From the NCBI GenBank assembly GCA_964390585.1, contig CAYMIH010000001.1, positions 8,432 to 72,431 on the forward strand: 64,000 nucleotides of DNA, in the 5' to 3' direction. Origin of the DNA: an uncultured Alistipes sp. GTDB lineage: Bacteria; Bacteroidota; Bacteroidia; Bacteroidales; Rikenellaceae. Of the stretch, positions 2,398-60,655 are shown in pieces. Position numbers and translations under genes: made by a program. The notes under the pieces are model-generated. The model was not told the origin of the DNA. It did no database searches and saw only the letters and a program-made list of their open reading frames with translations. Every line of letters begins with the position of its first letter. Within the stretch, counting starts at the first letter, position 1.

Positions 2398-2495
2398 TCG
2401 ATATCGCATGGCGATATCGACAGTTCGCCGCCGCCCCACGCGGCGGACTGCAACTCGCCTTACGCTCGTGCATGTCCTCCGCCGTCGGCGAACTG
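2398..2495 (-). repeat. Dispersed palindromic element, subfamily A, copy A1
   Basis: Arms CAGTTCGCCG/CGGCGAACTG; shared core; terminal hairpin TCGATATCGC-ATG-GCGATATCGA. Confidence 0.9.
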
Positions 2496-2575
2496 CAGCC
2501 CGTATGCAATATGATATTTGCTCGTCGGGAGTGAATTTTTCTTCCGTCCCTATTGCCCGATTCGCGAAAAATGGT

Positions 2576-2583
2576 TAACTTTG
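2576..2583 (+). promoter_or_regulatory. -7 box for ftsE
   Basis: TAACTTTG. Confidence 0.6.
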
Positions 2584-2643
2584 TAAGTTAATGCAGCCGT
2601 CGTAACGACGGCCGATATCGACCTAACGTAATACCGATAACGG

Positions 2644-3375
2644 ATGGACAGGACGAATAATGTTGTAGAGTTGCGCAATGTCGCCATTTACCACTCCGAC
2701 GGCAATTCGCGCCGCGTGAAGTCGGACGACGAGCTGGTGTTGTCGGACGTGAATCTGACCGTCGCCCCGGGTGAACTTGTCTATTTCATAGGCCGTGTAG
2801 GCAGCGGGAAAAGCACTTTACTCAAAACTTTATATGCCGAGGTTCAACTCCTTGAAGGAGAGGGATACGTTGCAGGTATGGATTTGCGAAGGTTAAGACG
2901 CGGCGACATTCCGCGTCTGCGCCGCAGGATGGGCATCGTGTTTCAGGATTACCAGTTGCTGGACGACCGCAACGCTTTCTTCAATCTCTACGACGTGATG
3001 AAAGCCACGGGGTGGAAAAAGGAGTCCGACATCCGCCGCCGCATCGACGAGGTGCTGTCGGTGGCGGGACTGAGCAACAAGGCCTATAAGATGCCGCACG
3101 AACTGTCGGGCGGCGAGCAGCAGCGTCTGGTCATAGCCCGCGCTCTGCTCAACGCGCCGCGTCTGCTGCTCGCGGACGAACCTACGGGAAATCTCGATCC
3201 CGTGACGGCCGACGGCATAATGCGCCTTTTCAGGGAGATCGCGGCATCGGGCTGCGCCATCATAATGTCGACGCACAACACGGCCCTTATCGAGCAGTTT
3301 CCCGCGCGCACGATTCTCTTTTCGAAAGGCAGGATTACGGAGATCGACATCGAAAAGAGTTTTTCCGCGGAATAG
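2644..3375 (+). CDS. ftsE: Cell division ATP-binding protein FtsE-like ABC ATPase
   Basis: Walker A GRVGSGKS, 'LRRRMGIVFQDYQLL', LSGGEQQR, ADEPTGNLDP. Confidence 0.8.
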   Translation: MDRTNNVVELRNVAIYHSDGNSRRVKSDDELVLSDVNLTVAPGELVYFIGRVGSGKSTLLKTLYAEVQLLEGEGYVAGMDLRRLRRGDIPRLRRRMGIVFQDYQLLDDRNAFFNLYDVMKATGWKKESDIRRRIDEVLSVAGLSNKAYKMPHELSGGEQQRLVIARALLNAPRLLLADEPTGNLDPVTADGIMRLFREIAASGCAIIMSTHNTALIEQFPARTILFSKGRITEIDIEKSFSAE

Positions 3376-3407
3376 CGGCCGCAAGTGCGTGAATCGCGTG
3401 TCGGCGA

Positions 3408-3439
3408 TTTGCAGAAATCGATAAAAAACGTTATTTTTG
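3408..3439 (+). promoter_or_regulatory. -33/-7 promoter for gyrB
   Basis: TTTG (3408-3411), 20 nt spacer, TATTTTTG (3432-3439). Confidence 0.72.
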
Positions 3440-3483
3440 CGTGATGTAAAAATGATCCAAAAGAGAGATTTTATATAGAACTA

Positions 3484-58905: not shown

Positions 58906-59493
58906 ATGAAAATCAACAAAGCCGAATTCAAGTGCAGTTCGGAGAGAATCTCGCAAGTCCCGAAAGACGATCTTCGCGACATAGCGTTCATCGGGCGCAG
59001 CAATGTCGGCAAATCGTCGCTCATCAACATGCTCACGGGGCGCAAGGCGCTGGCCAAAGTGTCGTCCACCCCGGGCAAGACCCGCCTTATAAACCACTTC
59101 CGCATAAACGACTCGTGGTATCTGGTCGACCTCCCGGGATACGGCTACGCCCGCGTGTCGAAAAGCATACGCGGCGAGTTCTCGAAGATCATCCTCGATT
59201 ACGTGCTCAAGTGCGAGAAGATGCACTTTCTGTTCGTTCTGGTCGATTCGCGGCTCGAACCGCAAGCCATCGACATGCGTTTCATCGAGATGCTGGGCGA
59301 GAACGGCATTCCGTTCGGCATCATATTCACCAAGAGCGACAAGCTCTCGGCCGCACAGCTCAAAAAGAGCGTCGAACGCTACCGCACCGCCCTCGCGGAG
59401 CAGTGGGAGGAGTTGCCGCCCATGTTCGTCTCGTCGAGCGCACGCGGCACGGGGCACGACGAAATACTCGACCATATCGAAAAATGTTTATAA
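58906..59493 (+). CDS. engB: Ribosome biogenesis GTPase YihA/YsxC
   Basis: 'GRSNVGKSSLIN', 'PGKT', 'DLPGYGYA', 'TKSD'. Confidence 0.94.
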   Translation: MKINKAEFKCSSERISQVPKDDLRDIAFIGRSNVGKSSLINMLTGRKALAKVSSTPGKTRLINHFRINDSWYLVDLPGYGYARVSKSIRGEFSKIILDYVLKCEKMHFLFVLVDSRLEPQAIDMRFIEMLGENGIPFGIIFTKSDKLSAAQLKKSVERYRTALAEQWEELPPMFVSSSARGTGHDEILDHIEKCL

Positions 59494-59542
59494 TTATTTG
59501 AAAAGTCGGTATCGAAGCTGTCCTTTTTTACCGTGGATTGTA

Positions 59543-59550
59543 TATATTTG
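59543..59550 (+). promoter_or_regulatory. -7 box for prs
   Basis: TATATTTG. Confidence 0.6.
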
Positions 59551-59573
59551 CACCATCAAAATTCAACTGTACA

Positions 59574-60515
59574 ATGGCTATACATAAGATCAAGTTTTTC
59601 GCGGGACGCAATTCGCGTTATCTGGCCGAGAAAATCGTGGCCAGCTACGGCACGACGCTCGGCGATTCGGAGATACTCCAGTTCAGCGACGGCGAATTCC
59701 AACCGTTCTACAACGAGTCGATCCGCGGTTGCACGGTGTTCATCATCCAATCGACGTTCCCGCCCTCGGACAATCTGATGGAGCTTCTTATGATGATCGA
59801 TGCGGCACGCCGCGCTTCAGCCTACAAAGTCATTGCCGTAATGCCCTACTTCGGCTGGGCCCGTCAGGACCGCAAGGACCGTCCGCGCGTTCCCATCGGA
59901 GCCAAGCTCGTAGCCAACCTTCTGGTTGCGGCGGGTGTCGACCGCATCATGACGATGGACCTTCACGCCGATCAGATTCAGGGATTTTTCGACGTTCCCG
60001 TCGACGCGCTCTACGCCAGCGGCATATTCATACCCTACATCCAGAGCCTCAATATCGAGGATCTGTCGATCGCCGCTCCCGACATGGGCGGTGCCAAGCG
60101 AGCCAACGCCTACGCCAAGCATCTGCATACCCCCATCATCATATCGCATAAGGAGCGTGCCAAAGCCAACGTGGTGGGCAGCATGACCGCCATAGGCGAA
60201 GTGGAGGGGCGCAACATAATCATCGTCGACGATATGATCGACACCGCGGGAACCATCTGCATGGCAGCCAACATGCTCATGGACAAGGGTGCCAAGAGCG
60301 TCCGCGCCGTCATAACCCATCCCGTGCTGTCGGGCGCCGCCTACGAGCGCATCAACGAAAGCAGTTTGCAGGAGGTCATCGTTACCGACACCATTCCACT
60401 CAATCAGGAGAAGGATCTGAGCAAGTTCACCGTCCTCTCGGTGGCCGACATATTCGCCAACGTGATAGAACGCGTGCACAACTACAAGGAGATAAGTTCG
60501 ATATTCTATAAATAG
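59574..60515 (+). CDS. prs: Ribose-phosphate pyrophosphokinase
   Basis: 'FSDGE', 'ARQDRK', 'DLHA.QIQGFF', 'VDDMIDTAGT'. Confidence 0.96.
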   Translation: MAIHKIKFFAGRNSRYLAEKIVASYGTTLGDSEILQFSDGEFQPFYNESIRGCTVFIIQSTFPPSDNLMELLMMIDAARRASAYKVIAVMPYFGWARQDRKDRPRVPIGAKLVANLLVAAGVDRIMTMDLHADQIQGFFDVPVDALYASGIFIPYIQSLNIEDLSIAAPDMGGAKRANAYAKHLHTPIIISHKERAKANVVGSMTAIGEVEGRNIIIVDDMIDTAGTICMAANMLMDKGAKSVRAVITHPVLSGAAYERINESSLQEVIVTDTIPLNQEKDLSKFTVLSVADIFANVIERVHNYKEISSIFYK

Positions 60516-60538
60516 AATCCCGATCCCGCTAAAACCGC

Positions 60539-60572
60539 AGGCTGCCTCGCGAAAGGCAGCCTTTGTTGTTTT
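60539..60572 (+). terminator. Terminator after prs
   Basis: AGGCTGCCT/AGGCAGCCT plus T-rich tail. Confidence 0.65.
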
Positions 60573-60655
60573 GCGGTTCGCCGACAGCGGAGGATTGCGA
60601 CAGCAGTCCGCCGCGCGGGGTGGCGGCGAACTGCCGACATTGCAATGCAATGTCG
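60573..60655 (+). repeat. Dispersed palindromic element, subfamily A, copy A5 (internally shortened)
   Basis: GCGGTTCGCCGACAGCGGAGG...GCAGTCCGCCGCGCGGGGTGGCGGCGAACTGC plus CGACATTGCA-A-TGCAATGTCG. Confidence 0.88.

Follow-up and report, generated by a model that had tools for sequence, protein, structure and literature searches.

A stretch of 64,000 nucleotides (nt) from an Alistipes genome, referred to here as the window, carries nine copies of a palindromic repeat of about 100 nt, belonging to two related subfamilies, A and B. These units probably form part of a superfamily of non-coding hairpin repeats found across Rikenellaceae, similar to the repetitive extragenic palindromic (REP) sequences and bacterial interspersed mosaic elements (BIMEs) of other bacteria but independent of a REP-associated tyrosine transposase (RAYT) and served by a putative trans factor. 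The anatomy of the units, their abundance, their exclusive placement between genes, their mosaic clustering, their family-wide spread, the turnover of their sites and their lack of association with Y1 transposases are directly supported. A preliminary description of the window had proposed non-autonomous, intergenic palindromic repeats like REPINs (inverted REP doublets). In the wider sense of non-coding, non-autonomous, extragenic repeats of the REP, REPIN or BIME type this assignment stands; several of the details that came with it do not.

The window (G000:C1:8432-72431) belongs to a metagenome-assembled genome (MAG), G000, of 2.24 Mb in 104 contigs, estimated at 89.7% completeness, for which gene positions were obtained genome-wide with a crude codon-based gene caller. 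Its assignment to Alistipes follows from a MutS 83% identical to the one encoded in an Alistipes MAG. Its elements were recovered in three ways, by a repeat scan, by nhmmer profiles and by a covariance model (cmsearch), and each of these gave exactly nine in the window, the same nine as first described; comparison with the gene calls also bore out that all of them are intergenic. Two covariance models were used, a first model (R1) and a broader one built on 35 sequences (R2).

Set in one orientation, A and B can be aligned over their full length and share one architecture, in which a 5' arm is followed by a centre, a 3' arm and a small hairpin, for about 100 nt in all. The arms are inverted, measure about 30 nt each and pair into a long imperfect hairpin of 35-40 bp; their sequences are specific to the species or subfamily, and the stems covary. 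The 3' arm contains an unpaired G-rich bulge, CGC-GTGGGG-CGG in A and CGC-GGGG-CG in B (consensus CGC-[R/Y]-GGGG-Y), which reads CAGGG or CCGGGG in other species. The preliminary description was thus right to place a G(T/C)GG-GG motif on the 3' arm but not to see it at the 5' foot of a hairpin, since it lies in the bulge or loop of the long one. Nor is the motif a REP-type GT(A/G)G tetranucleotide attached to a hairpin, as then assumed, because GTGG is typical of A only and B reads GCGGGG. The inverted arms of that description were recovered as well, whereas its conserved spacer turned out to be an optional apical module, ACGAGC-n3-5-GCGAGT. In the long form the centre reads ACGAGC-n-GCGAGT(T)GC, with the potential for a pair of short stems around tandem G.A pairs. 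The short form, to which about 55% of A copies belong (A60573 among them), has another, brief centre and no apical motif. The small hairpin abuts the 3' arm and has a stem of 7-9 bp, either of class 1 (CGAYATNGC-n3-GCNATRTCG), found only with A, or of class 2 (GCRRYTC-n2-4-GARYYGC), found with both A and B. Variants of its stem are perfectly compensated, and its loop is near random.

Each arm is also quasi-palindromic, so that alternative local folds are possible. In A copies a local 6-bp hairpin could form 2 nt after GTGG (after GTGGGG), but this feature is not conserved across subfamilies, and pairing of arm to arm is the only fold supported across them. Covariation was assessed in 35 copies from the source genome, the sister contigs described below and seven other genomes. 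Both sides change in 16 of 23 pairs, and paired cells reach 90.9% in an alignment that had itself been fitted to the model, against 77.5% in shuffles (0/500 reach 90.9%) and 33-45% when partners are slid. The two strands are not equivalent: the canonical strand is predicted to fold better than its complement in 88% of 346 copies, by a mean of -4.4 kcal/mol, and its positions outside Watson-Crick pairing are G.T, G.A and G.G rather than C.A, C.T and C.C. This asymmetry in folding, together with the type of mismatch, suggests that the G-rich strand acts in a single-stranded form.

The elements of the window are listed below by position and strand, with their R1 scores; their names keep the start positions first given to them.

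2393 to 2500, minus strand: A element, long form (A2398), 107 bits, between the transfer-messenger RNA (tmRNA) gene and the next gene; small hairpin on the 3' side, CGATATCGC-CAT-GCGATATCG.
6196 to 6303, plus strand: A element, long form (A6200), 101.7 bits, between udk and the mutS stop codon, on the mutS side of a shared terminator; small hairpin CGACCTCGC-GTC-GCGAGGTCG at 6277-6297.
17777 to 17882, plus strand: B element (B17782), 99.3 bits, occupying the entire 108-nt spacer between a gene of 358 amino acids (aa) and truA.
26233 to 26337, plus strand: B element (B26238), 93.5 bits, 3' of a terminator and upstream of yggS.
27043 to 27150, minus strand: A element, long form (A27049), 91.8 bits, its small hairpin beginning 3 nt past the yggS stop codon.
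27180 to 27196, no strand given: solo arm remnant CGCCGTCGGCGAACAGC, a direct-repeat match about 30 nt beyond A27049.
44323 to 44429, plus strand: B element (B44328), 102.3 bits, with a stop codon on one side and a bidirectional terminator on the other.
47925 to 48030, plus strand: A element (A47929), 85 bits, in a divergent, promoter-side spacer about 20 nt upstream of the start of a radical-SAM gene.
58729 to 58834, plus strand: B element (B58734), 95.7 bits, 3' of a terminator.
60569 to 60661, plus strand: A element, short form without apical motif (A60573), 72.8 bits; small hairpin CGACATTGC-AAT-GCAATGTCG.

In fold predictions that included A6200, the long hairpin has a minimum free energy of about -56 kcal/mol (z -2.5 to -3.5). 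The tmRNA gene next to A2398 lies at window 1948-2350 on the plus strand (Rfam RF00023, 139.6 bits), and the element begins about 45 nt past its 3' end.

Genome-wide, nhmmer profiles detected about 410 loci that together occupy 35.8 kb, or 1.6% of the genome. This number is a lower bound, because 76 of the 208 contig ends lie within 400 nt of a unit. The intergenic bias seen in the window holds throughout: one unit out of 371 overlaps a gene call, though about 85% of the genome is coding. Units are found between convergent (76), divergent (50) and tandem genes (140), and their densities of 1.39, 0.80 and 0.97 per kb, respectively, amount to a modest excess between convergent genes. Where the genes are in tandem, the canonical strand runs in their direction in 83 cases and against it in 57. 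Distances of 10 nt or less are found on the stop side for 41 of 292 and on the start side for 5 of 240. Many loci are composite, with 63 of 318 containing two to four units (41 doublets, 18 triplets and 4 quadruplets) joined by fixed linkers, as in BIME clusters. A recurrent composite consists of A, its hairpin, AATACCTAATTATAATATATT and B, and composite repeats extend up to 652 bp. Besides full doublets, solo 3' halves are present as partial nhmmer matches.

On the 5' side the boundary of a unit reads T|GC(T)GTTCGCC and on the 3' side hairpin|A, and no target-site duplication was found in 146 A copies for lengths of 2-8 nt at any offset. The 141 A and 192 B copies compared contain no identical pair, and the median identity to the nearest neighbour is 0.92. 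Recent amplification, which the preliminary description had proposed, is therefore unsupported. The arms are 90-99% conserved and the loops and centres near random, a pattern that fits a long-term constraint on the arms, either selection for copy-competence in a slow birth-death process or a host function. With respect to local GC skew, A is concordant in 64% of cases and B shows no relation, and in the near-complete genome G115 a hand tally of match orientation gave no flip between replichores. The weakness of the skew link and the lack of a flip argue against a strict mechanism of the IS200/IS605 type, in which the lagging-strand template is used.

The persistence of sites was followed in other Alistipes species and in three metagenome contigs of a sister species (L161, L162 and L163), which are syntenic with the window over 41.6-63.3 kb at 86-88% nucleotide identity. 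The presence or absence of the repeat at orthologous loci, a comparison already called for in the preliminary description, proved not to be fixed. None of the five closest Alistipes loci (L001-L005) has an element at the udk-mutS site, and 28 of 29 other Alistipes species lack a match upstream of truA. In the remaining one, the repeat-bearing G009, a weak match of 18 bits lies 164 nt upstream of truA (L118:1239-1337), which may be an old remnant or the result of a separate insertion into this spacer. Of the four window sites tested in the sister species, two are empty and two have modules exchanged in place. B44328 and A47929 are absent from L162 and L163, loci with 86% identity, where short unrelated sequence is found instead (a 27-nt segment at the A47929 site). 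At the B58734 site, L161 has an orthologous B unit; in L162 and L163 the flanks are near-identical, but the element between them has strongly diverged. A unit is present at the A60573 site in the window and in all three contigs, each time a different one: the short form carries CGACATTGC-AAT in the window and CGACCTCGC-GTC in L161, L162 has the long form, and L163 has the long form without the hairpin. The hairpin of L161 is also the one found at window 6277-6297. It differs from that of A60573 at 7 of 21 positions, with both stem changes compensated, against a single change in the other ~70 nt, so that the difference looks like the replacement of a module rather than point mutation. Altogether, empty sister sites and changed units at shared sites indicate that gain, loss and exchange of units proceed as fast as species diverge. 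For differences between strains, an exact-pattern metagenome scan at the yggS end gave no match.

Other observations were made along the same alignments and in the window. A 408-aa gene at window 54962-56188 (plus strand) has no counterpart in L162 and L163, which have about 30 nt in place of about 1.3 kb. R1 matches of about 22 bits at L162:2500-2604 and L163:3801-3905 fall in a sister coding region (window ~45280-45380), have no counterpart in the window and are probably due to chance. A tandem pair of AT-rich hairpin units at window 31252-31368 (43 nt each, 79% identical, 74 nt apart) is unrelated to the A/B family. A 52-nt direct repeat (56329-56380 and 56779-56830; 85% identical, 450 nt apart) lies within one reading frame and is probably an internal domain duplication.

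The strong covariation and the conservation of unpaired motifs across genera could also be expected of a structured RNA with a host function, such as a stabiliser of the 3' untranslated region, an RNase processing site or an attenuator, in which the bulge and the tandem-GA apex would bind a protein and the DNA copies would have spread secondarily. The greater stability of the canonical strand, with its G.U pairs, agrees with this idea, as do the many units that abut stop codons or fill operon spacers (B17782, for example). Yet orientation relative to the flanking genes is only weakly biased, 50 units sit in divergent promoter spacers, and more than half of the A copies do without the apical motif. 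No T-run follows either hairpin, which counts against this reading and is the reason why the units are not intrinsic terminators. Rfam detected only the tmRNA at its gathering threshold and gave no match even at E ≤ 10 over 58700-60700, a segment with one B and one A, so that the elements are not catalogued there, a point on which the preliminary description had made its claim of novelty depend. Some 400 copies, with gain and loss between sister species, would also be atypical of an RNA gene, and an RNA function as the primary explanation is considered unlikely.

The distribution of the repeat is wider than the first model indicated. With R1, matches were obtained in some Alistipes species only and in none of 16 other families of the order. 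R2 was applied to 150 Rikenellaceae genomes from 31 genera, to which the source genome was added (151), with a limited number of candidates scored per genome; a genome was called repeat-negative when it had no R2 match at E ≤ 1e-5. Matches were found in 37 of the 150, from 10 of the 31 genera, which gives 38 repeat-positive and 113 repeat-negative genomes with the source genome included. In many positive genomes every scored candidate matches, and 139 of 150 do in G115, which belongs to genus g27, where 13 of 14 sampled genomes carry the repeat. Within Alistipes, 9 of 15 sampled genomes are positive, the source genome included, and in g44 and g45 none of 15 is in either genus. Copies from six other genera have the same layout with genus-specific, covarying arms, and GCGGNG, AACGAGC, GCGAGT and CGC-R-TGGGG-Y-GGC are kept across genera. 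What was at first taken for an element system of a single lineage is accordingly a superfamily present in at least 10 Rikenellaceae genera. In the literature on REP or REPIN repeats of Alistipes, Rikenellaceae or Bacteroidales no description of it was found, one 2026 preprint naming Alistipes and REP being left aside.

Another explanation holds that the units are binding sites for a core host protein, such as a topoisomerase or a nucleoid protein, kept by selection on the sites and spread by illegitimate recombination without a dedicated enzyme. The E. coli BIME-2, which is bound by gyrase, provides a model. Arms that are highly conserved around near-random loops although no two copies are identical, motifs maintained across genera without a co-distributed transposase, and the modest excess in convergent spacers would all suit such a function. 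The patchy spread, with most sampled genomes negative and close relatives among them, speaks against a role essential to the host. Sites also come and go between sister species, and the binding protein is itself only putative. This explanation is given a low probability.

The search for a mobilising enzyme began from the proposal in the preliminary description that a RAYT, or HUH Y1 enzyme, is encoded outside the window. Searches for Y1/RAYT with the Pfam profile PF01797 gave no match in the source genome, at its 89.7% completeness, nor in the element-bearing Alistipes genomes G011, G023 and G024 (98-99% complete). The profile matched 6 of the 151 Rikenellaceae genomes, among them 3 of the 38 repeat-positive ones and none of the 14 of g27, and no flanking units were found at the Y1 loci of other Rikenellaceae. 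The proposal thus finds no support in the genomes searched. Genes with a unit on both sides were no better candidates: of the 28 scanned out of 29, 25 are of an ordinary housekeeping type (families include SecA, RF3, Dus and peptidases) and 3 lack a Pfam match, with no transposase-like gene among the 28.

These data bear directly on the classical REPIN/RAYT model, in which REP doublets are mobilised as single-stranded DNA by an HUH Y1 enzyme (TnpA-REP) encoded elsewhere in the genome. The inverted doublet layout, the solo 3' halves that resemble REP singlets, the GTGG 2 nt before a possible local hairpin in A copies and the lack of target-site duplication are all in line with it. RAYT subclasses 2.4 and 2.6, with atypical structures, exist in Bacteroidetes (PMC6006769), and a RAYT may have been missed in the incomplete source MAG or be too divergent. 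Against this stand the absence of PF01797 matches from the source and the three more complete Alistipes genomes, the opposite frequencies of repeat and Y1 in g27 (13/14 and 0/14), Y1 genes that units do not flank, the lack of GT[AG]G in B and most other subfamilies, and the lack of a replichore flip in G115. Of the readings weighed here, it appears the least probable.

Transposases of other types were also considered. A single IS1182-family transposase gene adjoins a repeat cluster in an AT-rich stretch of the source genome (G000:C14:33417-35051, L199:709-2343; NF033551, 436 bits). It was rejected as the mobiliser, as neither unit arms nor shared termini surround the gene and it shows no phyletic correlation with the repeats (0/14 in g27). 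The gene is followed by an unrelated inverted repeat with 24-nt arms. The source genome had no match to IS110 (PF01548), Transposase_31/Rpn (PF04754), rve (PF00665) or RVT_1 (PF00078), and in its assembly no protein gene is multi-copy and no DNA repeat exceeds 652 bp. These results weigh on the reading of the units as miniature inverted-repeat transposable elements (MITEs), that is, internally deleted derivatives of a DDE-type insertion sequence whose arms would be terminal inverted repeats bound as a duplex by a transposase in trans. The arms do behave like ~30-bp terminal inverted repeats, a long and a short form coexist as in Correia/NEMIS elements, and the IS1182 gene lies beside a cluster. 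However, target-site duplication is absent at every offset and length tested, the unit is asymmetric, with its bulge and one-sided extra hairpin, no full-length parent was found in the one assembly scanned for it, and the profiles for other transposases remained unmatched. A MITE origin is regarded as very improbable.

A TnpB-like match in the source genome was rejected as well, being a Cas12f-like gene that has its own array of clustered regularly interspaced short palindromic repeats (CRISPR) and is unrelated to the repeats. This locus (G000:C45:15454-17620, L170:298-2470) encodes a 497-aa Cas12f1/TnpB-like protein (PF07282, 52 bits), followed by a CRISPR-like array with at least 8 copies of a 36-nt repeat and spacers of about 28-30 nt. 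No cas1 or cas2 was present within the 2.5 kb read, and half a B unit lies about 70 nt upstream. Two further identities were dismissed on the form of the unit. Integron attC sites have core sites in the order R''(RYYYAAC)...R'(GTTRRRY), with an adjacent integrase and a cassette context; the arms here, GTTCGCC...GGCGAAC, have the opposite order, and their neighbours are core housekeeping genes. An inverton was ruled out on anatomy.

The favoured explanation is that of REP/BIME-like repeats served by a factor other than a RAYT. The folded G-rich strand would be recognised, through its bulge and stems, by a trans-acting protein specific for both sequence and structure and distinct from the HUH Y1 enzymes that PF01797 detects. 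This putative protein would copy or move units without target-site duplication, or would drive recombination or gene conversion among copies. Slow birth-death turnover would then keep the recognised arms conserved, with loops and centres left to drift, and effects on the host, such as protection of mRNA 3' ends or the provision of supercoiling sites, would be secondary. A more specific version can be put forward only tentatively, and it may well be wrong: the repeat would be a new, Rikenellaceae-wide class of hairpin elements, spread and exchanging modules by way of a non-HUH-Y1 factor that reads the bulged hairpin (G-rich bulge and tandem-GA apex), and the small 3' hairpin would be rewritten as a cassette at each event. 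In that version, such rewriting would be the reason why the small hairpin combines a hypervariable loop with an always complementary stem.

Several points speak against the favoured explanation. The trans-acting enzyme was not found, and mobility is deduced from presence or absence of units and module swaps between species; the source MAG is incomplete and broken at the repeats, so a repeat-flanked enzyme gene could be unassembled. Current activity is unsupported, given that no copies are identical. The hairpin is a predicted fold, and inverted repeats bound as a duplex would covary equally, while the strand asymmetry could be partly inherited from the consensus. A function selected by the host would also be compatible with unpaired motifs that are so strongly conserved from genus to genus.

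Among known systems, the closest likeness is to the REP, REPIN and BIME repeats of Enterobacteria and Pseudomonas, which are also extragenic, number in the hundreds, occupy about 1-2% of the genome and consist of imperfect palindromes with species-specific stems. Further shared traits are inverted doublets with a choice between one long hairpin and two short ones, the coexistence of subfamilies (compare Y, Z1 and Z2 of E. coli), mosaic clusters with fixed linkers, a preference for the 3' ends of genes and the lack of target-site duplication. The Rikenellaceae units differ in that no RAYT was found for them and they show no phyletic link to Y1_Tnp, in carrying the G-rich motif in a bulge or loop instead of a GT[AG]G at the 5' foot, in their larger size (~100 nt), in an extra small hairpin that is obligatory and an apical module that is optional, and in the lack of abundant identical 'master' copies. 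Like the Correia/NEMIS elements of Neisseria, which measure about 100-155 bp and make up about 2% of a 2.2-Mb genome, they have inverted arms, long and short forms differing by an internal segment, no known transposase and frequent co-transcription with neighbours. Correia elements have TA target-site duplications, symmetric 26-bp terminal repeats and a site for integration host factor, whereas the units described here are asymmetric and without target-site duplication. Subterminal hairpins, the absence of target-site duplication and better folding of one strand are shared with palindrome-associated transposable elements (PATEs) derived from IS200/IS605 and with hairpin-ended derivatives of single-strand transposons; PATEs, however, need TnpA (Y1), which was not found here, and their strong lagging-strand-template polarity is not seen.

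CGTC-tagged REPs (Di Nocera et al. 2013, PMC3733652) are a REP-like family that reportedly has no dedicated transposase and extends beyond Proteobacteria, Bacteroidetes included. Their hairpins have a stem of 8-9 bp and a loop of 4-5 nt, with CGTC as an unpaired terminal tag and CCA as a tail. In the Rikenellaceae units, by contrast, CGAC/GTCG lies within the stem of the small hairpin, and the main body is a bulged hairpin of 35-40 bp. REPs with atypical structures that are linked to RAYTs have also been reported in Bacteroidetes (PMC6006769). Neither of these published groups fits the anatomy of the units.

The repeat offers a clear case of REP-like sequences without a RAYT, a question left open for CGTC REPs by Di Nocera et al. 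Because related genomes divide into 38 with and 113 without the repeat, the missing factor can be searched for by phyletic profiling, and the unpaired motifs conserved across genera give concrete target sequences for pull-down and cleavage assays. Alistipes and its relatives are major gut bacteria, and the repeat fills 1-2% of many of their genomes and breaks their assemblies, as the contig ends adjoining units illustrate. Its units adjoin stop codons and occupy operon spacers, so that consequences for mRNA ends, recombination and MAG quality are likely.

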